A DNA stretch of 64,000 bases from positions 26,481 to 90,480 of the forward strand of contig JAJRTJ010000001.1 of the NCBI GenBank assembly GCA_024278335.1, read 5' to 3'. The notes below the pieces were generated by a model. It had not been told where the DNA came from. It saw only the letters and a program-made list of their open reading frames with translations, and made no database searches. The position numbers and the translations under genes are program-made. The DNA is from an archaeon (GTDB lineage: Archaea; Nanobdellota; Nanobdellia; Pacearchaeales; GW2011-AR1). Positions 2,443 to 56,596 of this stretch are shown in pieces. The stretch's first letter is position 1. The number at the start of each line of letters is the position of its first letter.

Positions 2443-2496
2443 TAAAACCAATCTTGTCCAAAACCTTTAAAAGCAAGTAGCAAGTTTAATTTTTAT

Positions 2497-2615
2497 AGCG
2501 GGGTGGAGCAGTCTGGAGTGCTCGTCGGGCCCATAAGCAAAGCCGTAGGCTTTCCTTTCCTACGCGTTTGCATAGGAAACCCGGAGGTCGTGTGGTTCAA
2601 ATCCCACCCCCGCTA
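2497..2615 (+). tRNA. Initiator tRNA-Met (anticodon CAU) with a ~43-nt intron at the canonical 37/38 position
   Basis: A1:U72 pair (AGCGGGG/CCCCGCT+A) and three G:C pairs closing the anticodon stem (TCGGG/CCCGG). The loop is CCCATA|intron|A and the T loop is TTCAAAT. Oddities: C at position 33 and a 1-nt bulge in the T stem (GTG-T-GG/CCCAC). Confidence 0.8.
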
Positions 2616-2691
2616 TTATACAATCTCCCCCGATTGAAGAACTCGTCCAATTATCAACAACCCTTAAATACTCTCGGCCCTTTTTTCTTAA

Positions 2692-6892: not shown

Positions 6893-7609
6893 CTAACTTT
6901 TTTTCGCAACTTTCCACAATAACTCAAAATATTTTTTATATCCTTCGCTGACTTCTGAATTTTTAATTACAATCACAAAAGGATTTTCTTTGCTCCACAA
7001 GATTATTGCAACTTTTTCTCCATAAATATTTACTGCAAGAGGGGAGGCGTATTTTTGAGGAAGAAATTTTATTTATGATAAAGGGATTTTGGGAGTTTTC
7101 TTTGCTCTTTGATTGAAGATTATTCTTGTTTTAATTTTTCTTTTTTTCCTCTTTTCATCAAACCATTTAAAATAAAATTGCAATACTTCATGAGCCAGAG
7201 GAGAAGCCCCTAAAATTAAAATTTCTTCCCCAGTTTCAATCTGGTCTTCAAAAACAGTTTTTAACCCAAGTTTCCCTCTGTAAAAGTTAGTCTCTTCTTT
7301 TTTCTTAACTTGCTCATAATTTAAAAGCATCTCCGGCATAATTTCTTCTAATTTTTTTTCTTTTTCTTTTATGATTTCCATAAATCTTTTTGGATTTGCT
7401 GCTTTGAAGATTTTTCTTCTATTTTTTAAAATATATCCTACTAATCCTTTTTTAATAAGCATTTCAATACTATCATAAACAGTTCTGCGATGAAGTCCTG
7501 TTTTTTGAGAAATAATTCCTGCTAAACATGGTCCTTGGGTGAGCAAGGCAGAGTAAACTTTTGCCTCGTTTTTTGTAAGACCAAATTCAATTAAAATCAC
7601 TTCTTTCAT
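6893..7609 (-). pseudogene. TrmB-family transcriptional regulator interrupted by an in-frame TAA (7073-7075); the homologous reading frame continues to TAG at 6893-6895
   Basis: N-terminal wHTH: FGLTKNEAKVYSALLTQGPCLAGIISQKTGLHRRTVYDSIEMLIKKGLV. After the stop the same frame reads IKFLPQKYASPLAVNIYGEKVAIILWSKENPFVIVIKNSEVSEGYKKYFELLWKVAKKS*. This looks like the end of a TrmB C-terminal domain, for a total of 238 codons. Confidence 0.65.
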
Positions 7610-9589: not shown

Positions 9590-10390
9590 TCACTGGTTGT
9601 CATGACAAAAAGTTTCAGAATTGTTTTTGATATTAATCGTCTTGATTGCATCTTTAATTGGATTCGGAGACTCATAAATAACAACAATGGATTTATTTTT
9701 TGGAAGTTCTTTCAATAATCTTTTTATTTCTTTTTCTTCTGTTGCAAGATGTCTTTTCTCTCCTTTTTTTCCATATTCAATTCCAGAAAAATGCACATGC
9801 CAATCTTTATATTGCTTAAAAACTTTTTTTACTTCCTTAAAATTATATGTTTTATATCTTGCAATCATATGTGCAAAGTCAATGCAAAAACTGCACCGAG
9901 TGTCTCTGACAAGTTGTGCTATCTCATTTAGGCTTCCAAATACATTAGCTTTTCCAATAATCTCTGGAGCAAGTTTGGGGGTGTATTTGTTCTTTTTAAT
10001 TTCTTCTTGCATCTCTAAAATTCCTTTTTTAATGCTTTCATAAGTTTCTTTTTTTGAAAACTTTCCATAATAACCGCAATGAAAAACAACTTTTTTTGCT
10101 CCAAGCCAAGTTCCAACTTCACAAGACCTTAAAATTCTCTTTTTGCTTGCTTTAATTTTTTCTTTATCCTTAGAATTAAGATTAATCCAGTAAGGCGCAT
10201 GGATTGTAAGAGAAATATTAAATTTTTCTGCAGCCTTCTTAACTTTCTCTGCAACTTCTTTTGATTTAATAAAAACTCCGTAAGTAAAGGAGATTTCTGC
10301 AGCTTGTATTCCCAGCTCCTTGTATCTTGCAAAAGTTTCTTCAACATCTTTCACAGAACCAATTCCTGCAGGACCTATTTTTATTGCCAT
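9590..10390 (-). CDS. nfo: AP endonuclease family 2 (endonuclease IV-like, TIM barrel)
   Basis: IHAPYWINLNS (compare HxxYLINL of Nfo), then VVFHCGYYG, CIDFAHM, HVHFSG and YESPNP, spaced like the metal ligands of endonuclease IV. Confidence 0.7.
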   Translation of the reverse strand: MAIKIGPAGIGSVKDVEETFARYKELGIQAAEISFTYGVFIKSKEVAEKVKKAAEKFNISLTIHAPYWINLNSKDKEKIKASKKRILRSCEVGTWLGAKKVVFHCGYYGKFSKKETYESIKKGILEMQEEIKKNKYTPKLAPEIIGKANVFGSLNEIAQLVRDTRCSFCIDFAHMIARYKTYNFKEVKKVFKQYKDWHVHFSGIEYGKKGEKRHLATEEKEIKRLLKELPKNKSIVVIYESPNPIKDAIKTINIKNNSETFCHDNQ

Positions 10391-18880: not shown

Positions 18881-21800
18881 TTATTTATTTGCTTTTTCTA
18901 CAACTTTCTTTTCAGCAGTTTTTTTCTCACTTTCTTTTTTTATTAATGGACCAATGACTTTAACCATCAATCCAGGAAGACCAGTTCCAACTGGAACAGG
19001 CTGGTTAAGAATGATATTTTCAATAACACTTGAAAGCTGTTCTTTTTCTCCTTTAATTGAAGCATTAACAAATTGCTTAACTGGAGTTTCAAAAGTTGCT
19101 CTTGCAAGAATCGAAGATTTTTGGGCAATTATCCCCATTCTTGTAACTCCCCGCACAGTTCCAGTGTTAGTCATAGCATCGGTAATTAATTTCAAGTGCC
19201 GTTCATCAATATCAAGACCCTGAGCTTTAACAGTCTCAGATATTTCACTGATAATCAAATTTCTGGCAACTTCAATTCCAAAAACCTCTGCAACTTCATG
19301 AAGGTCATTTGAAATGGTTTTATCTTTATTTACTTCTTTTAATGCAAGAATCTCTTTCAAATTTGTCCCAAGAGTCATAATTACATAGTCAGAATTCTTT
19401 TTAACAACTAAAACCTGTTCTACATTTTTCACTCCAGAAATAATAGTTTCTTTTAATTTTTCCTTTAATTTATAAATTTCTTTAAAATCAAATTCTGAAG
19501 CATTTAGAGAAATAACATCTCCTTTTTCTTTTACATTAAATCCAATTTCATTTAACCTTTCAACTACTTTTTTTAATGAAGTGTGTGTTTGTTTTAGTCC
19601 TTTGGAATCAATTTTGATTTCTACTTTTTTCTCGCTAAAATTCAAATTAATCTCTGAAGCAATTTCTTTTACCTTTACTTCTTTTATTTTTTCAGCAAAA
19701 GTTCTTGCATTGTTTTCATTATTATATTCTTTTTCCAGATAAATTTCCATTTTTGGAGAAGAAGGAGTTCTTCTGGCGTCAAAGATTTCAATTAATCTTG
19801 GAAGGCCTGTTGTAACTTGCATTTCTGAAACACCTGCCATGTGGAAAGTGTTTAAAACCATCTGTGTTGAGCTTTCTCCAAATGATTGGGCTGTTACAAT
19901 TCCAACTGCTTCTCCAGAATCAATTTTTCCGTCTTTTTGATGCAATCGTGAAACATCCTTCCCATCATCCCCATAGACAAATTGTATTATATTGTTATTG
20001 CTGTCTCTCACAGTTTTATCATACTCCACGCGAATATCTTGCAGTGCATTAGCAAGTCTTCTATATAAGTATCCAGATTTTGGAGTTCTAAGAGCAGTAT
20101 CCATTAATGAATCCCTGCCAGTAATTGACTGAAAGAAAAATTCATCTGGTCTTAAACCTTTAATAAATGGGCTGTGAATAAATCCTCTTGCCCGAGGAGA
20201 AAGTTCTCCTTTTTTAAAGAATGATAATGTTCTTCCTTGATAACCAAAATTAATTCTGCCTCCTGCAAATGCCTGCTGACCAACACATGAAGCCATTTGG
20301 GTTATATTCAAAGCATTTCCCCCGCCACCAGATTGAATCATGTGATTAACAGGATTTGTCTTAGGAAACTCTTCTTTAACAATTGCCCCAATTTTTGCTC
20401 TAACCTCATTTAGTGTTTGAAGAATTGCAATTTCTCTGGATTCCTCCAAGGTCTTGCCAGGAACAATCTCAAGTTCTCCTCTTTCATATCTTTCAATAAT
20501 TTCCTCTGTTTTTTTCTCAGCTTTTTTAATTATCTCCTCTCCCCTATTAATCAGGTCTTGGCTTAAATCTAAGTCTTCAATAGAAATTGTAATTCCCCTT
20601 TCTGTTAAATAATTCTTAGCTAAATTAAATGCTCTCTTAATAGTTATAAAAGTTTCTTCTCTCCCAACAGCTTTATCAAGCTCTTTAATAAGCTCCCCGT
20701 CTTCTTCTCCAAACGCAGTTTTATCAATATCTCCTTTAATAAATTCTCCATTTTTCACTTTCAAAGATTTGTTTTCAAAATTAATTTTTGGGAGGATTTG
20801 AGAGATAAGCTCTTTTCCTTCTATTTCTTTTTTAGATAATTTGCTATTGATTCCAGATTTGTATAATAATTGGTTTGCTTCCTCTAAAGATAATTTTGCT
20901 TTGCTTAAAAGGTAAACGCCCGTTATTGCATCTTTGATGCATCCAATCCAGTTTGTATTGTTTTTTGGAGAAATTAAGTTTTTCTTAACATCGAGGAGGA
21001 TTTTTGCTTCTGCTCGTGCTTCTTCTGTTTGAGGAGAGTGAATATTCATTTCATCTCCGTCAAAATCTGCATTGTATGGGGCTGCCGCAGCTGGATGGAC
21101 TCTGAATGTTCTTCCAGGAAGAATTTTGGCATAATGAGCCATTAAACTTCCTTTGTGCAGGCTTGGATGACGATTAAATAAAACAATGTCTCCATCTTGA
21201 AGATGTCTTTCAACCTTATACCCGACTGCAAGTTCTTCAATAATCTCCTCTTTCAATTCAGGAGTGACTTTCTTTCTTTTTCCGTCTGGTCTTATGATGT
21301 AATTTGCTCCAGGATATTCTTCCCCTTTCTTAATAAGCGCCTTTAATTTCTCGATATTTAAATCATTGACCATCTCTGCAACTGTTACTATCTTTGCAAT
21401 TTCCATCGGAACTCCAACTTCATTAATTTCAATATTCGGATCTGGAGAAACAACTGAACGAGCAGAATAATTTACTCTTTTACCTGCCAAGTTTTTCCTA
21501 ATTCTTCCTTCTTTTCCTTTTATTCTCTCTGTAATTGTTTTCAAAGGCTGTCCGCTTCTGTGCCTTGCAGGAGGAACCCTTGCAACAGTGTTGTCAAAAA
21601 ATGTTGTTACATGATATTGAAGCAAATCCCAAAGGTCTTCAATAATCACTTCAGGAGCTCCTGCATTTAAATTTTCCCAAAGCCTTTGATTTGCACGAAT
21701 AATATCTGATAATTTATGGGTTAAATCATCTTCAGATCTTTCTCCACTTTCAAGAATAATACTTGGTCTGACTGTAACTGGAGGAACGAGAAGCATTGTT

Positions 21801-25960: not shown

Positions 25961-26079
25961 TGGCCCCGATGGGATTTGAACCCACGACACCTGGATTGCT
26001 TTGAGACATGTCTCAATGCAGGTGAGACGAATGTCAAGCCTAAAAGTCCAGTGCTCTAACCAGGCTGAGCTACGGAGCC
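25961..26079 (-). tRNA. tRNA-Lys (anticodon UUU) with a ~44-nt intron at 37/38
   Basis: Hand fold: GGCTCCG/CGGGGCC+A, D arm GCTC-AGCCTGGTTA-GAGC, anticodon stem CTGGA/TCCAG, loop CTTTTA|intron|A. A BHB-like helix CTTT/AAAG is flanked by 3-nt bulges. T arm GTGGG-TTCAAAT-CCCAT. A TATA-like ATATAAATA lies ~-33..-25. Confidence 0.9.
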
Positions 26080-26269
26080 ATAGCATTAAATAAAGTGAAA
26101 TGCTATTTATATCTTTGTAGTCAGGGTGGTTTTAGCCAGAATCTCGTTAGAGATCTTCTGAGCCTAACCAGGCTGAGCTACGGAGCCATGTATGTAATAG
26201 CAAGCGAAGCCTCTCTTAGGCTGAGGCCTTACGAAGCAAGGTCATCCCTGTGGGAAGCTACGGAGCCAT
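26080..26269 (-). repeat. Two tandem partial copies of the tRNA-Lys 5' end with structured spacers
   Basis: Minus-strand GGCTCCGTAGCTCAGCCTGGTTAG (24 nt, 26164-26187) is identical to tRNA positions 1-24. GGCTCCGTAGCT (12 nt, 26256-26267) matches positions 1-12. All three copies are preceded by AT. Neither copy has a T arm or a 3' acceptor strand. Confidence 0.7.
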
Positions 26270-27828: not shown

Positions 27829-27829
27829 T

Positions 27830-27958
27830 TTATATCTTTATCTTAAACATTACCCGGTCATTCCATTCTGCCTGCTTTCCATCATTCCACTGAGCAACAG
27901 GTCTAAAATATCCAACGACTCTGGAATATCTTTCGCATTTTGTTCTCTTTTTTTCCAT
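27830..27958 (-). CDS. Stand-alone 42-aa glycyl-radical peptide corresponding to the C-terminal loop of NrdD
   Basis: My translation is MEKKRTKCERYSRVVGYFRPVAQWNDGKQAEWNDRVMFKIKI*. RVVGY matches the NrdD RVxGY glycyl-radical motif, and NDGKQAE resembles FNxGKxxE. A strong RBS (AAGGAGGGGAAAATATG) precedes it. The frame differs from the large nrdD ORF. It is too short for the ORF track. Confidence 0.7.
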   Translation of the reverse strand: MEKKRTKCERYSRVVGYFRPVAQWNDGKQAEWNDRVMFKIKI

Positions 27959-27972
27959 ATTTTCCCCTCCTT

Positions 27973-30129
27973 TTATTTATTAAGTTTTATTAGTTCAATG
28001 CTTGTTGAACTTTCTGAATCTTTGACCAATAGATTCTCTGACTCTTTAATTCCTGCTTCTCCCTTTATAGCGTGTATAACTTCTGCACGAGTGGCATTTT
28101 CTATTTTTTCTGTTTCTTCTACATATCCAATTTCCTCGTCACATTTTGGACAATATTCATGGTCTCCTTCAAGATATCCATGTTTTGGACAGATAGAGAA
28201 AGTAGGAGTAATAGTGAAATAAGGAAGATGGAAATTTTCAGCTATTTTTTTAACTAATTTTTTAACTGATTCTTTTTCAAGTCTTTCTCCAATAAATCCA
28301 TGAAGAACTGTTCCGCCAGTATACTGAGTTTGCAAATCATCTTGGAGCTCTAATGCCTCAAAAATATCTGGAGTATAGTTTACTGGAAGCTGGGTTGAGT
28401 TTGTATAGTATGGCTCTGCTTTTTTGTTTTTAACTGCTTCTTCATTTGCTACCACAATTCTTCCATACTTCTTTTTATCTGTTCTTGCAAAGCGATAGCC
28501 AGTGCTTTCTCCTGGAGTTGCCTCTAAATTATAAATGTTCCCTGTCTCTCCTTGAAACTCCTCTAATTTTTTTCTCATGAATTTTAAAACCCTGACTGTA
28601 AATTCCTTTCCTTTTTTTGTGGTAATGTTTTCTCCAGGCATAAAATTTATAACTGCTTCATTCATACCAATTAATCCAATTGTTGCAAAATGGTTTTTCC
28701 AATATTCATTATATCTTTTTTTAACCATTCTCAAATAAAATTTTGAATAAGGATAAAGCCCCTTTCTAGTGAGGTTCTCAATTGCTTTTCTTTTTATCTC
28801 CAGGCTTTCTTTTGCAAGAATCATAAGTTTCTCAAGTCTTTTTAAAAAATCTTTTTCATCAACTGAAATAAACCCCAATCTTGGCATATTTATTGTAACA
28901 ACTCCAATTGAGCCAGTTTGAGGATTAGCTCCAAATAACCCCCCCCCTCTTTTTCTTAATTCAGTTTGGTCAAGCCTGAGCCGGCAGCACATACTTCTTG
29001 CATCTTCAGGACTCATGTCTGAGTTAATAAAATTTGAAAAATAAGGAATCCCATATTTAGCAGTCATTTCCCAGATTAAGTCATAGTTTGGATTATCCCA
29101 ATCAAAATCCTTTGTGACGTTATATGTTGGAATTGGAAAAGTAAAAATTCTTCCATGAGCATCTCCTTCCATCATACACTCTGCAAAAGCTTTGTTTAAT
29201 ACGTCCATTTCTTTTTGAAATTCTTTATACTTTTCTTTTTGAGGCTGGCCTCCAATTATAACTGCTTCATCTTTCATATAATCTGGAACTTTAAGGTCAA
29301 GAGTGATATTTGTAAACGGGGTTTGAAAGCCGACTCTTGTTGGAACAGCAAGGTTAAATAAGAATTCCTGCATTGCTTGTTTAACTTCCTTATATGAAAG
29401 ATTGTCATATCTGATGAATGGTGCAAGGAGCGTATCAAAATTTGAAAATGCCTGTGCCCCGGCTGTTTCTCCTTGTAATGTATAGAAGAAATTAACTATT
29501 TGCCCAAGAGCTGTTCTTAAATGTTTTGCTGGCTTAGAAGAAACTTTTCCTTGAACCCCTGTAAACCCTACTGACAAGAGGTCTTTTAAATCCCATCCAA
29601 CACAATAAGCACCAAGAGTTCCTAAATCATGAATATGCAAATCTCCATTCTCATGAACTTTTCTTATTTCTTCAGGATAAATTCTTCTCATCCAATAATT
29701 TGTTACAATTTTTGTAGCAATATAATTATTCAATCCCTGAAGAGAAAATCCCATGTTTGAATTTTCCTTTACCATCCAGTCTTCCAGTCCAATATAATCA
29801 TCAACAACCTCAATTGTATCAAATAAGCCCTTTACATTTCTTAGTTCTTCGTGGCTTTTTCTATAAAGAATATATGCTTTGGCAACCTTTGCATGCCCTT
29901 CTTCAATAAGAATTTTTTCCACTCTGTCCTGAACTTGTTCTACATCTGGGAAATCGTTTCCTTCTTTAAGCAGACTTTCAACAACCATGTCTGCAAGAAT
30001 TTCTGACCTCTTTTTATCATGCCCTCCAACGGCCTTTGCAGCCTTCCAAATAGCGTCGGCAATTTTATCTTTCTGAAACAAAACCACGCTTCCGTCTCTT
30101 TTTCTTATTTTTTTAATCTCTTTTTTCAT
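27973..30129 (-). CDS. nrdD: Anaerobic ribonucleoside-triphosphate reductase, large part (ATP-cone plus catalytic barrel plus Zn site) lacking the glycyl-radical loop
   Basis: N-terminal ATP-cone (IRKRDGSVVLFQKDKI), class III RNR core, and a C-terminal Zn motif CPKHG...CPKC. A non-homologous ~50-aa tail and a stop follow. Confidence 0.85.
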   Translation of the reverse strand: MKKEIKKIRKRDGSVVLFQKDKIADAIWKAAKAVGGHDKKRSEILADMVVESLLKEGNDFPDVEQVQDRVEKILIEEGHAKVAKAYILYRKSHEELRNVKGLFDTIEVVDDYIGLEDWMVKENSNMGFSLQGLNNYIATKIVTNYWMRRIYPEEIRKVHENGDLHIHDLGTLGAYCVGWDLKDLLSVGFTGVQGKVSSKPAKHLRTALGQIVNFFYTLQGETAGAQAFSNFDTLLAPFIRYDNLSYKEVKQAMQEFLFNLAVPTRVGFQTPFTNITLDLKVPDYMKDEAVIIGGQPQKEKYKEFQKEMDVLNKAFAECMMEGDAHGRIFTFPIPTYNVTKDFDWDNPNYDLIWEMTAKYGIPYFSNFINSDMSPEDARSMCCRLRLDQTELRKRGGGLFGANPQTGSIGVVTINMPRLGFISVDEKDFLKRLEKLMILAKESLEIKRKAIENLTRKGLYPYSKFYLRMVKKRYNEYWKNHFATIGLIGMNEAVINFMPGENITTKKGKEFTVRVLKFMRKKLEEFQGETGNIYNLEATPGESTGYRFARTDKKKYGRIVVANEEAVKNKKAEPYYTNSTQLPVNYTPDIFEALELQDDLQTQYTGGTVLHGFIGERLEKESVKKLVKKIAENFHLPYFTITPTFSICPKHGYLEGDHEYCPKCDEEIGYVEETEKIENATRAEVIHAIKGEAGIKESENLLVKDSESSTSIELIKLNK

Positions 30130-30749: not shown

Positions 30750-31001
30750 ATGGACGCAGGATATTTAACAATGGCTTCTCAAGAGTTTGGAATTCCGCTT
30801 TGGCTTTTAATGATTATATTATCTTGGACATTGGTGTGGAAACTTCTGGCAATGTGGAAATCTGCAAGAAAAGGCTCTGCTATCTGGTTTATTGCTCTTG
30901 CTGTTTTAAATACTGTGGGTATTCTTCCGATACTTTATATTTATGTTTTCTCTGAAATGAAATTTAAAAAATCTCAGAAAAGAACAAGCAGAAAAAAATA
31001 A
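30750..31001 (+). CDS. Small 2-TM membrane protein (DUF5652-like)
   Basis: 83 aa with ...WTLVWKLLAMWKSARKGSAIWFIALAVLNTVGILPILYIY..., which resembles the DUF5652 pattern as I recall it. Confidence 0.5.
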   Translation: MDAGYLTMASQEFGIPLWLLMIILSWTLVWKLLAMWKSARKGSAIWFIALAVLNTVGILPILYIYVFSEMKFKKSQKRTSRKK

Positions 31002-44555: not shown

Positions 44556-44593
44556 TATTAATTTTCCCCTCTGAAAATTGATTTTTACTCTTC

Positions 44594-44788
44594 GCCAGCC
44601 CTTCGGGACATTGCATTCTGGCTCGGTTTTTTCTGCGAAAAAACTCTACTAACAGCGATTAAAACTCTGCTCACTTGCAGTTCGCTACGCCCTCACTTTT
44701 CAGCTCGTCGCTTCATTCCATTCCGCTCCAGAGGAAAAGTTCGGGGAAATAAATCCTGCGGATTTACTTCTCTTAATCGCAATGTTAG
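44594..44788 (+). ncRNA. Candidate structured RNA in a GC-enriched 260-bp intergenic region
   Basis: GCCAG-(CCCTTCGGG...)-CTGGC at 44594-44622. GTTTTTT-CTGCG-AAAAAAC at 44626-44644. A long-range 14-bp helix pairs CTAACAGCGATTAA (44649-62) with TTAATCGCaaTGTTAG (44773-88). It encloses CCCTCACTTTTC/GAAAAGTTCGGGG (44690-44746) and TAAATCC-TGC-GGATTTA (44750-66). Strand is uncertain. Confidence 0.4.
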
Positions 44789-44815
44789 TTACAATTTCCT
44801 ATTCAATAATTGATT

Positions 44816-45970
44816 TTACCTTCCACAGCTAGGACTTCCACAACTACCCCCACATCCCCTCCCGCACCTTCCTCCACAGCTTCCTGAAGGTGCTACCTTT
44901 TTGTTTGCCTCTTCTATTTGCAAATCTGTAACCGATCCATTACTTGTAACAATAAATATTCCAGGAATCATTCCCATCCAACAACTCCATGAAATTATCC
45001 CTTCTTTATTTGGAGTAAATTTAATCACTTGCTTTCCTTTTTTTATATTAAATTTTAATCCTAATTTTGGGACTTGAATTGCATTATTACATCTGGTTAT
45101 TTCATTTCCATAAATTTTCCATTTTACTGGAACTCCTTTTTTCAAAACAAATCTGTCTGGAGTCCAGCCATTTTTGTCAACTTTCATTTCAATAACTTGA
45201 TAACCCCCTGAATCAACGATAATGTTTTGAGAAATTTCTTCTGCCCCTTTTATTTTTTCAATAATACTTGTAATATCATAACCCCCCCCACTTAAAACAA
45301 GCCCTCTGTTCAGCATAATCAATCCTAAAATTAAAACAAAAACTGCTGTAATTTTTAAAATTCTTTTAGTTGCTTTACGACTAATTATTGAGGTTAAACT
45401 GCCGAATCCAATCAAAACAGGAAGGGTTCCAATTCCAAATACCCCTAAAGATAAAAATCCCCCCAAAAAACTTCCTGTTCCAGCCGCATATAAATATAAT
45501 GCCTGCAAGGGTCCGCATGCAATAAACAATCCACTGAGTATTCCAGTCATAAAAGGGGCTTTGTAAAAACCCTTGGCATTGTTGGTTGTTTTTGAAGCCC
45601 ATTTGTCCAATAACTTTGGATTAAATTGAAAATGTCTGAAAAAGCTAATACCCAGTATACTCATAGCAAAAGCAATCATAAATAATCCTGCAAAGATGGC
45701 AACCCCTGCACGAAGTCCAACACTAAAAGCAAATGCTCCCCCAATCAACCCAAAAATCCCCCCAATAACAGAATAAGAAATAACCTTTGCACCCCCATAG
45801 ACAAAGTGCTGTTTTAATCCTTTATGCCCCTGCTGAGCATTCTTGGTTGTATATCCAATTACAAATCCCCCGCACATTGAGATGCAGTGAAAACCTGTTA
45901 AAAGACCTGCAAAAAATAACAGGAATAGGGAAGTTTTTTGAGAGTCAAGATTAAATTCAGGAAATTTTAT
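44816..45970 (-). CDS. DsbD_2/TauE-like membrane domain fused to a cupredoxin-like domain with a Cys/Gly-rich tail; the reading frame is open up to the TAA of the upstream HMA gene
   Basis: The motif GLLTGFHCISMCGG spans the track start codon (45877). The C-terminal domain has ...ITRCNNAI...WSCWMGMIPGIFIV (Cupredoxin_1-like). The tail is SGSCGGRCGRGCGGSCGSPSCGR. The 31 codons upstream (IKFPEFNLDSQKTSLFLLFFAGLLTGFHCIS) contain no ATG/GTG/TTG. Confidence 0.65.
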   Translation of the reverse strand: MKFPEFNLDSQKTSLFLLFFAGLLTGFHCISMCGGFVIGYTTKNAQQGHKGLKQHFVYGGAKVISYSVIGGIFGLIGGAFAFSVGLRAGVAIFAGLFMIAFAMSILGISFFRHFQFNPKLLDKWASKTTNNAKGFYKAPFMTGILSGLFIACGPLQALYLYAAGTGSFLGGFLSLGVFGIGTLPVLIGFGSLTSIISRKATKRILKITAVFVLILGLIMLNRGLVLSGGGYDITSIIEKIKGAEEISQNIIVDSGGYQVIEMKVDKNGWTPDRFVLKKGVPVKWKIYGNEITRCNNAIQVPKLGLKFNIKKGKQVIKFTPNKEGIISWSCWMGMIPGIFIVTSNGSVTDLQIEEANKKVAPSGSCGGRCGRGCGGSCGSPSCGR

Positions 45971-46270
45971 TTATCCAGTTATTTTGTAAAGAATAAATAA
46001 AAGCAATAAGACACTAATTCCAAAAATAATCCAAGCAATAATGTTTTTTTTGTTTATCTCCTTATTTTTTTTATTTTCTACTCCATAACCTTCATTTTTT
46101 ATAATTTGTTCAATTTCTTTTGCAGAGATTTTTTCAGGATAAAATTCAATTTCTGCTGTTTCTTTTGCAAAATTAATGGAAATGTTCTTAACCTTGTCTT
46201 TTAGCGCATCTTCAATTTTTTGTGCACAGGAATTGCAAGTCATTCCCTGAATCATAAAACTCTTTTTCAT
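45971..46270 (-). CDS. Heavy-metal-associated (HMA) domain protein with C-terminal TM
   Basis: MIQGMTCNSCAQKIEDAL (GMTCxxC) followed by the TM segment IIAWIIFGISVLLLLFILY. Confidence 0.8.
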   Translation of the reverse strand: MKKSFMIQGMTCNSCAQKIEDALKDKVKNISINFAKETAEIEFYPEKISAKEIEQIIKNEGYGVENKKNKEINKKNIIAWIIFGISVLLLLFILYKITG

Positions 46271-52046: not shown

Positions 52047-52772
52047 TCATCCCAATCTCTTAATCTCTTCAATTTCATCTGAAGTAATTGCACATCCATG
52101 AGATTTAAGAGCCCAAAGTAATGCATCTAAAACATCTCCTTTTTTTAAATCAATTAATCTCTTTTTATATGCAAGATACATTAATTCTGCAGACCTGATA
52201 AACTTAAAATTTTTAAATTCCTTAAAATTTTCATTCCTCATTTTAATTCTTAGATGAAGTTTTCTTTCCATAAGATTCTTTAAATTCTCTGGCTTTTCAA
52301 CAAGAATTCTGATTGTTCTTTCATCTACTACAATTACACTTTTTACTCCTTTGTTCTGAAGAATTTTGTTCAGTGCAAGGCATGACGATTCTCCTTTGCT
52401 TAAAATTTTAACCCCCCTTCCCCTGCTCTCAAAAATAGAATTTGCAAGACTGACAAATCTTTCTGTTTCAGCATTAATCTCTCTGTCTTTAATACCAATT
52501 GATTCTGGAAGTTCCAGCACCTTCTCTGACAGCAGTTTTTCAAGCATCATTGCTTGAAGCTCAAATCTTTTTATTGTTAATGGCTTGTCAATAATTTCTC
52601 TTTTAACTTCATGGGTAATCAAAAATTTTCCATGAAAATTTTCTCTTAATTTTTCAAGCTCTTCTAAAAGATTTTACATAGCAATACTAATTAAAGCTCC
52701 TGAATCAAAGATAATTGCCTTTTCTATTTTTTCCCCTTCTTCAATATTTTCTGGTTTTATTGACGGTATCAT
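52047..52772 (-). pseudogene. PIN-like domain protein interrupted by an in-frame TAA (52674-52676)
   Basis: From ATG 52772: MIPSIKPENIEEGEKIEKAIIFDSGALISIAM-TAA-NLLEELEKLRENFHGKFLITHEVKREII... all in one frame. IIFDSGALISIA resembles a PIN N-terminal strand. The track ORF begins at an internal TTG (52622). Confidence 0.5.
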
Positions 52773-53203: not shown

Positions 53204-53763
53204 CTAAATATTTCCTCTGCAATTTTTATTCTGTCTTTTGCTCTAAGAGTTTTGTTTTCTGAAACATCTGAAAGTTCTTTCTGTCCAGAATAATTCGCAA
53301 GCTCCCATAATGTAATCCCAAGAATCCTTGCAGTCTGCTCCATTGAAATCCCATGCTCATAAATTTTTGATGCTTTGTTAATCTTTGCTTTTCTAAAAAT
53401 ATCTTCAATATATTTTTTCAGCTCTCCAGAAATTTTTGAAATTGCTTCTCGGATTTTTTTAATATCTTCTTTAAATGCAATTTCATTTTTGTTTTCTAAA
53501 TTTTCAATTGCCTTTTCTAATGCACTAAGAATTGTCTTATAAAATTCATCCCACCCTTCTAACTTGTGGTATTTTTCTCTTTCTATAATCTTGCTAAGTG
53601 AATAAACAATCACTGCAACGGCAATATTTCCTGGATCTTGAACAAGAGATACAGAATGAATTGTTTGATTGCTCAATTTTCTAAGTTTGTCTCCGTCCTT
53701 TGCTTCAAGAGCATCAGCAGTCTCTCGAAGAATACGCAAGACATTTCTCACCTCAACTACCAT
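53200..53763 (-). CDS. Hypothetical protein with C-terminal HTH-like segment
   Basis: 187 aa, helical, with ...ISMEQTARILGITLWELANY near the C-terminus. Confidence 0.4.
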   Translation of the reverse strand: MVVEVRNVLRILRETADALEAKDGDKLRKLSNQTIHSVSLVQDPGNIAVAVIVYSLSKIIEREKYHKLEGWDEFYKTILSALEKAIENLENKNEIAFKEDIKKIREAISKISGELKKYIEDIFRKAKINKASKIYEHGISMEQTARILGITLWELANYSGQKELSDVSENKTLRAKDRIKIAEEIFR

Positions 53764-56383: not shown

Positions 56384-56596
56384 TAAAAAGAGGTGATATA
56401 ATATAGACACTTTACTACTATTTAAACCTTTCGCTAATGTTACTCTTAAAAAATGACAGCAGTTTCCCCACTTTAAATGGTAACACTTGTTTATAAATAA
56501 ATAATTTTGTTAGTCACTACATTTTTATAAGGAGTAGTTACTATAAATAAAATTTCCCAACATATACTTTAAATAATCTTTAATTCTAATTGATTT

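Follow-up and report, generated by a model that had tools for sequence, protein, structure and literature searches.

The locus described here lies on the minus strand of a 64,000-nucleotide stretch of DNA (referred to throughout as the window; contig JAJRTJ010000001.1 of assembly GCA_024278335.1, positions 26,481 to 90,480) from a DPANN archaeon. At 44816-46270, an open reading frame (ORF) for an HMA domain with one transmembrane (TM) helix is followed, in the same frame, by a region encoding a DsbD_2 membrane core and a cupredoxin-like domain, and the two are separated by a single TAA codon. The window has a G+C content of 32%, is 92.5% coding under the standard code and carries housekeeping genes for EF-1alpha, NrdD, SMC/ScpA and the ribosomal proteins S24e and S27ae as well as an intron-containing tRNA-Lys. 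Its proteins have their best homologues in metagenome-assembled genomes (MAGs) of Pacearchaeota, Woesearchaeota and Nanoarchaeota.

The HMA ORF ends with ...YKITG-TAA on the minus strand, as given in a preliminary description of this DNA, and the frame beyond the stop stays open for 384 codons. The residues that follow read IKFPEFNLDSQKTSLFLLFFAGLLTGFHCIS-M-CGG, and a codon scan bears out the earlier observation that no ATG, GTG or TTG is present for 31 codons, such that the first potential start is ATG 45877 at codon 32. Within the HMA domain (Pfam E=9e-15, residues 5-62), the metal-binding motif GMTCNSC is present. Counted from the stop, the DsbD_2 match (Pfam E=8e-40) sets in at residue 18, so that it precedes the methionine of ATG 45877 by 14 residues; indeed, the conserved membrane motif GLLTGFHCxxMCGG straddles this ATG, as had been noted, and the first cysteine of HCISMC is encoded 5' of it, inside the start-free stretch. 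The cupredoxin-like domain is weak when taken alone, with Cupredoxin_1 reaching 22 bits against a Pfam cut-off of 27.

A TATA-like sequence, AATTATAAGG, is located ~25-30 nt 5' of the ATG of the upstream HMA ORF, and real starts in this genome are preceded either by TTTAAATA-type boxes ~25-30 nt upstream or by a GGAGG sequence. Inspection of the upstream sequence revealed no Shine-Dalgarno (SD)-like or TATA-like signal before the ATA that directly follows the stop, nor before ATG 45877. An internal promoter formed by TAAATAAAA, which resembles the TATAAATA-type TATA boxes of the genome, was considered and rejected: the transcript start that it predicts has no start codon, and the distance to the next gene is too great.

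Used as a query, the joined (fused) sequence returned 1506 matches, of which the best 120 were examined, and 80 genome loci were compared. The fragment from the window itself aside, the best 120 are single proteins of ~464-528 aa that carry HMA together with DsbD_2, often with a cupredoxin domain, and align over 92-100% of the fused query. They derive from Pacearchaeota, Woesearchaeota and Nanoarchaeota, are annotated at source as 'sulfite exporter TauE/SafE / copper chaperone CopZ' or 'heavy metal transporter', and the closest among them are 63-64% identical to the fused query over 95% of its length. Almost all of the 80 loci likewise encode a single fused protein. The homology takes the form of a single uninterrupted high-scoring segment pair at 55 of the 80 related loci, none of the 80 has a stop at the position of the TAA, and no N-terminus coincides with the ATA or with the methionine of MCGG among the best 120 proteins. 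Since the best homologues are fused and none starts at the MCGG methionine, the HMA and DsbD_2 ORFs evidently represent one ancestral gene that is interrupted by one codon, and ATG 45877 is not a natural N-terminus.

The TAA falls into an alignment column occupied by G, N, E, D, S, H or Q, where the query has no indel. Residues M10, C12, N13 and C15 of the HMA domain are invariant across the alignment, the TGFHCxxMCGG and ACGPLQA motifs of the DsbD_2 core are invariant in the family and both present here, and the query aligns end to end with its homologues up to the C-terminus, where CNN and WSCWMGMI are likewise invariant. Altogether, 115 of the 119 homologue-invariant residues are kept. The gene thus has the HMA CxxC, the DsbD_2 core and the cupredoxin-like domain with its tail, and an uninterrupted ORF is the one family feature that it lacks.

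In many relatives (L036, L040, L046, L054, L065, L072 and L078), a stand-alone HMA (CopZ-like) gene is situated directly upstream of the fused gene, in most of them near position 10000. The window has no such separate HMA gene, which would leave the truncated product of 99 aa as the sole small HMA protein at this locus.

Two further genes of the window are interrupted by an in-frame TAA (Table 1). The first, encoding a TrmB-like regulator, had been described as interrupted, and the alignments agree: its homologues are single proteins of ~236 aa, in which the stop aligns to the Glu of the consensus IPLSEIKYLPQKY. Among the matches listed, 85 of 120 orthologues have GAA as this codon, from which one G-to-T change would be enough to generate the TAA. 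The second, a PIN-like/DUF3368 gene, was missed in the preliminary description and surfaced while long start offsets were being checked. Here the TAA comes after codon 32 of a frame that runs from ATG 52772, which overlaps the stop of an upstream GNAT gene (ATGA), onward to 52047. The PIN-like homologues are single proteins of 225-245 aa that have Ser or Asn at the stop column and contain PF11848. Of the in-frame stops flanked on either side by coding sequence, this site was placed first by a codon-usage scan, and the scan yielded no further clear case in the window. A single NCBI contig is the recorded source of the called fragment proteins of the interrupted genes (P0001, P0123 and P0241).

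Table 1. Positions of the interrupted genes, sequence contexts and other features discussed, in window coordinates
Feature	Position	Strand	Description
Whole interrupted gene	44816-46270	-	484 codons including the TAA; from translation, Pfam, NCBIfam and homologues; N to C: HMA, TM1, DsbD_2 (6 TM), cupredoxin-like, Cys/Gly-rich tail
Upstream ORF, standard decoding	45971-46270	-	99 aa: HMA (GMTCNSC metal site) and one TM helix, ends with TAA
In-frame TAA	45971-45973	-	aligns to variable loop residue between TM1 and first DsbD_2 helix
14-mer A-TAAATAAAATTTC	45961-45974	-	stop, then ATA AAA TTT C; matches TrmB site and intergenic copy
In-frame sense codons without ATG/GTG/TTG	45878-45970	-	31 codons; loop and first half of first DsbD_2 helix
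ORF from the only ATG	44816-45877	-	353 aa: truncated DsbD_2, cupredoxin-like domain, Cys/Gly tail; record protein P0001
Upstream arm TTTTATTTATTC of 11/12 inverted repeat	45994-46005	-	partner GGATAAATAAAA at 45976-45965
TrmB-like regulator gene	6893-7609	-	238 codons; TAA 7075-7073 in the same 14-mer
PIN-like/DUF3368 gene	52047-52772	-	241 codons; TAA 52676-52674, context ATG TAA AAT CTT
Third 14-mer copy	56543-56556	+	13-mer 56544-56556; intergenic, 41-54 nt upstream of scpA ATG, interrupts no ORF
TAAATNNNATTTC sites	7063-7075, 19537-19549, 26097-26109, 30954-30966, 45961-45973, 53472-53484, 56544-56556		seven sites
NrdD split	27829-30129	-	718-aa ORF and 42-aa ORF in another frame
Candidate structured RNA	44590-44800		directly downstream of cupredoxin gene
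Candidate non-coding RNA	2452-2691		intergenic, beside tRNA-Ser
tRNA-Lys (anticodon UUU)	25961-26079	-	45-nt intron

The preliminary description had put forward three explanations, namely read-through of the TAA, initiation at a non-canonical codon such as the adjacent ATA, and a broken gene. The one-gene premise behind the first and the third is borne out by the fused homologues; the ATA start did not hold up, having neither an SD nor a TATA signal nor a counterpart among homologue N-termini. Nanoarchaeota, exemplified by Nanoarchaeum equitans, possess split protein genes, and the situation here is similar in that a DPANN genome encodes, as two pieces in succession, what is elsewhere a single protein. 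Fission of the gene combined with unconventional initiation would require reinitiation at the AUA beside the stop (giving MKFPEF...) or a start at ATG 45877. UAA and AUA are adjacent at two sites of the window and also at an in-frame TAA of another DPANN contig (L242, see below), and the genome contains what may be a real fission, with NrdD encoded by ORFs of 718 and 42 aa. In true split genes, the pieces come with a start codon and ribosome-binding signals of their own, and the 42-aa NrdD piece does carry an SD (GGAGGGG) and an ATG, whereas the HMA/DsbD_2, TrmB and PIN pieces have neither. Moreover, a start at ATG 45877 would cost the protein the first cysteine of HCxxMC along with 14 residues of the DsbD_2 match, and neither a TrmB tail of 59 aa on its own nor a PIN domain devoid of its N-terminal acidic strand would be likely to fold or function. 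We therefore regard fission as very improbable.

The stops of the HMA and TrmB genes are embedded in the same sequence. As had been observed before, the 13-mer TAAATAAAATTTC is identical at 45973-45961 and 7075-7063, on the minus strand in both cases, and the identity extends to a 14-mer, since both copies, like the third one upstream of scpA, are preceded by A. The surroundings of this intergenic copy are TATA-like (CTATAAATAAAATTTCC). The identity of the 14-mer context at the two stops is beyond chance, the probability being ~1e-5 to 1e-4, and the 13-mer is found three times in these 64 kb versus five times in 2.14 Mb of related DPANN DNA, where none of the five copies interrupts a gene. Viral contigs that were scanned for the 14-mer gave unsorted single matches. 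The shared 3' context is confined to two of the three in-frame TAAs, with the PIN-like TAA lacking the 13-mer.

Both contexts are native coding sequence of their respective families, with nothing inserted. The HMA family frequently has x-I-K-I/F-P-E at this site (for example, CAA ATT AAA ATT CCA in L028), and the DNA found most often at the TrmB site of orthologues is GAA ATA AAA TAT C, with 21 orthologues matching 11 of the 13 bases; the commonest 10-mer after the codon is ATAAAATATC, present in 24 of 120 orthologues among the matches listed. Because the contexts are native, each of the two stops would be explained by one base change (G or C to T) before an existing ATA AAA TTT C. The window contains 26 in-frame xAA-ATA-AAA sites, two of which are TAA, and both of these belong to the three that are followed by TTTC. 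The motif is also present at one in-frame AAA-ATAAAATTTC site.

A broader motif, TAAATNNNATTTC, was also tried and set aside. It occurs seven times in the window versus 1.6 expected, a number reached in none of 100 shuffles, but the identical 13-mer makes up three of these seven; removing them leaves four versus 1.6, and the excess does not constitute independent evidence. For VAAATNNNATTTC, three occurrences are seen versus 6.4 expected.

The inverted repeat at the HMA site would template the T of the TAA and may be a quasi-palindrome hot spot; its hairpin has a z of -1.0, which is not significant alone. At the TrmB site, the repeat partner is only an 8-mer of chance quality.

Another explanation would be a sequencing, assembly or consensus artefact, in which the true codons would be sense (e.g. 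GAA) and a motif-specific miscall would have put T at the first base of GAAATAAAATTTC. In its favour, the same base stands at the same place of the same 13-mer three times, no GAAATAAAATTTC is left in the window, and the genes are otherwise perfect; furthermore, restoring the ancestral sequence would give a perfect 5-3-5 palindrome, as might be expected of a methyltransferase-type site. We nevertheless find this explanation improbable, as it would demand three true GAAATAAAATTTC in 64 kb, compared with four in 2.14 Mb of relatives. The stops stand in the deposited record, where the called proteins are fragments, the PIN TAA lies outside the motif, and substitutions at conserved positions bear no G-to-T signature. 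Nor are homopolymer frameshifts seen in the very A/T-rich 64 kb, unlike in an error-prone long-read consensus.

Other ways of bypassing or generating an internal stop were examined and rejected. A bulge-helix-bulge intron, an intein, an insertion scar or a target-site duplication would leave extra residues in the alignments, and there are none. Frameshifting or hopping need not be invoked, as the frame stays the same, the +1 frame meets a second TAA, and matching take-off and landing codons are missing. A genome-wide reassignment of TAA to sense, to which three in-frame TAAs at positions of conserved genes in 64 kb might point, can be dismissed as extremely improbable, since TAA is the main terminator of the window, ending 59 of its 91 ORFs, and is found in-frame at three of ~20,000 codons; the standard code gives the high coding density noted above, and the tRNAs of the window (Ser-GCU, Trp-CCA, His-GUG and the intron-containing Lys-UUU) include no tRNA(UUA) or other suppressor. 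At genuine TAAs of the window, A is the commonest base at both +4 and -1 (28 of 53 in each case), and the internal TAAs mostly have A at +4 and -1, like genuine terminators. UAA followed by a purine at +4 ordinarily terminates strongly.

The stops are not conserved. A scan of a metagenome collection found TAA, TAG, TGA or TGG at the codon matching the stop in no TrmB orthologue, versus at least 120 with any codon. The three stops appear to be private to this genome among the relatives examined, none of which is a close one. A conserved recoding site was rejected, as the stops are absent from every TrmB and HMA relative examined.

Because the stops are private, the contexts native and the nearest terminator bases ordinary, and because the third stop is devoid of the motif, we tentatively favour recent TAA nonsense alleles, in the case of the HMA gene leaving a 99-aa anchored HMA protein, as the leading explanation, albeit one that we hold at somewhat below an even chance. 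A single base substitution in this lineage would have created the TAA in the loop that joins TM1 to the DsbD_2 core, and the ribosome would stop there and release a 99-aa membrane-anchored HMA (CopZ-like) protein. The remaining 384 codons, lacking a start codon, an SD and a promoter, would go unmade or be translated only through background stop suppression, leaving the downstream part presumably without function. The HMA, TrmB-like and PIN-like TAAs would then be three recent, lineage-private alleles, representing incipient pseudogenes or truncations under AT-biased mutation. With respect to the shared context, the 14-mer (encoding x-I-K-F) may act as a hot spot for templated mutation, in which conversion of GAAATAAA would yield (TAAA)2, a perfect tandem; had the ancestral base been G, the change would also break a perfect GAAAT-AAA-ATTTC palindrome.

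A number of observations weigh against these alleles being ordinary recent nonsense mutations. In the three genes, no second lesion is present over 651 downstream codons, which fits selection and recency alike, and conserved columns are retained at 0.959 (HMA) and 0.953 (TrmB), values inside the spread of intact homologues, which average 0.979 and 0.961, respectively; this lack of further decay is compatible with a very recent event. A filtered homology census, comprising 200 related loci with ~1.1 Mb of homologue-covered DNA and 31 kb of covered window, counted ~6 in-frame stops per 1.1 Mb in the relatives versus two in the 31 kb, so that in-frame stops are ~12-fold denser in the window; the PIN-like case is outside the reach of the census and additional to these two. 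All three window stops are TAA, and no simple frameshift is seen. For two in-frame codon positions drawn at random, the chance of agreeing over the following 10 nt is 1-2e-5, and by our own calculation the probability that both TAAs would fall among the TTTC-followed sites is ~0.009. The hot-spot idea is post hoc, the 24 other in-frame xAA-ATA-AAA sites being unmutated, and we have found no mundane explanation that fully covers the 14-mer identity.

The same stop excess and the same 14-mer identity, together with the restriction of the stops to TAA, the lack of a simple frameshift, the enrichment of the 13-mer, the intact downstream frames with their conserved residues and the lack of initiation signals in the downstream parts, would be accounted for by context-dependent read-through. 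Here, UAA followed by AUA AAA UUU C, or by looser A-rich codons, would be decoded by a near-cognate or suppressor tRNA, such that the HMA gene would give a short anchored chaperone as well as the full transporter and the TrmB gene a short and a long product, and TAAs would persist where they are tolerable. We consider this possible, if on the whole unlikely. Slightly less likely still is the specific proposal of a DPANN archaeon in which UAA is decoded ambiguously within UAA-AUA-AAA-UUU-C, thereby yielding chaperone and transporter from one gene and tuning the length of TrmB. The preliminary description had pointed out the shared context; as an argument for a signal, its identity is indeed beyond chance, but the native origin of the contexts, the ordinary terminator bases, the lack of conservation of the stops and the third TAA in a different context all weaken this argument. 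UAA-A is the commonest genuine terminator context here, the in-frame AAA-ATAAAATTTC site and the intergenic copy carry the motif without any recoding role, no suppressor tRNA is encoded in the window, and no stimulatory RNA structure was detected at the stops (fold z of -1.0 to +0.4). Moreover, we know of no programmed UAA read-through in archaea.

The in-frame TAAs seen in DPANN data are followed by ATA in three of five cases, which would fit read-through. One of these (L242:1500, minus strand, metagenome contig Ga0247841_10109713) interrupts a DPANN TrmB orthologue at another position, GPSLAG*IARKTG, where the consensus is Gln, in the context GGA TAA ATA, thus sharing GGATAAATA with the HMA site of the window. 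At L046:15004 (plus strand), a TAA is aligned to Leu, Ile or Val by 61 queries, with the longest alignment spanning 757 aa, and sporadic in-frame stops also interrupt conserved genes on DPANN contigs at L028:1520, L285:2436 and L293:5208, together amounting to the background of ~6 per 1.1 Mb given above.

A functional precedent for one gene giving both a copper chaperone and a transporter by recoding is E. coli copA/CopA(Z), according to the account in PMC6747150, which cites Meydan et al. 2017. As in copA, the short product would be metallochaperone-like and carry the N-terminal HMA domain, with the full-length product being a metal-handling membrane protein. In copA, however, the mechanism that this account gives is -1 frameshifting, for which a slippery site is combined with a stimulatory structure, and by default the full-length protein is made, whereas in the window the short product would be the default and UAA read-through is hypothetical.

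Archaeal aRF1 is homologous to eRF1, and eukaryotic read-through motifs have been recognised through shared stop contexts. Contexts known from eukaryotes and viruses include UAG-CAAUUA (tobacco mosaic virus type) and UGA-CUAG (compare the review PMC13517186). The 14-mer resembles these in being a short linear sequence just 3' of the stop that is common to unrelated genes, but differs in the stop codon and the sequence, and its stop is not conserved. In-frame stops in otherwise intact prokaryotic genes were surveyed by Belinky et al. 2021 (PMC7918605), whose cases resemble those in the window in that a nonsense codon stands opposite a sense residue of intact orthologues, both flanks align well and no other lesion is present. 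That survey counted stops shared by at least two genomes, with TGA as a known leaky stop, whereas the stops in the window are private and TAA only, two of them within the 14-nt context. Whether such genes are pseudogenes or undergo read-through is a question common to both sets.

If the stops are plain nonsense alleles, the annotation would need correction, with two called proteins being one broken gene, and the MAG would carry an unusually high load of fresh TAA truncations, which bears on metabolic inference and genome shrinkage in DPANN archaea. If instead the 14-mer is a read-through signal, it would represent a new archaeal recoding mechanism, parallel to copA/CopA(Z), and, to our knowledge, the first context-programmed UAA read-through described in Archaea.

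Several other features of the window are listed in Table 1. The 718-aa ORF of NrdD matches positions 1-530 of Pfam NRDD and then continues with a tail of ~50 aa outside the match. The 42-aa ORF (MEKKRTKCERYSRVVGYFRPV...), which has the SD and ATG mentioned above, matches NRDD 530-562 and contains the glycyl-radical motif. This arrangement may reflect genuine gene fission or be spare-part-like.

Directly downstream of the cupredoxin gene, the gap 44556-44815 has a G+C content of 41% versus ~20% in typical spacers. The segment 44590-44800 within it folds with -63 kcal/mol (z -2.8) on the minus strand and -54 kcal/mol (z -3.5) on the plus strand, and has no Rfam match even at E<=1, making it a candidate for an unclassified structured RNA. 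The intergenic segment beside tRNA-Ser (46% G+C), with no convincing ORF and no Rfam match, is a candidate non-coding RNA. The tRNA-Lys was found by Rfam and missed by ARAGORN; upstream of it, the box TATAAATAGCATTTC resembles the intergenic 14-mer copy, CTATAAATAAAATTTC at 56541-56556.

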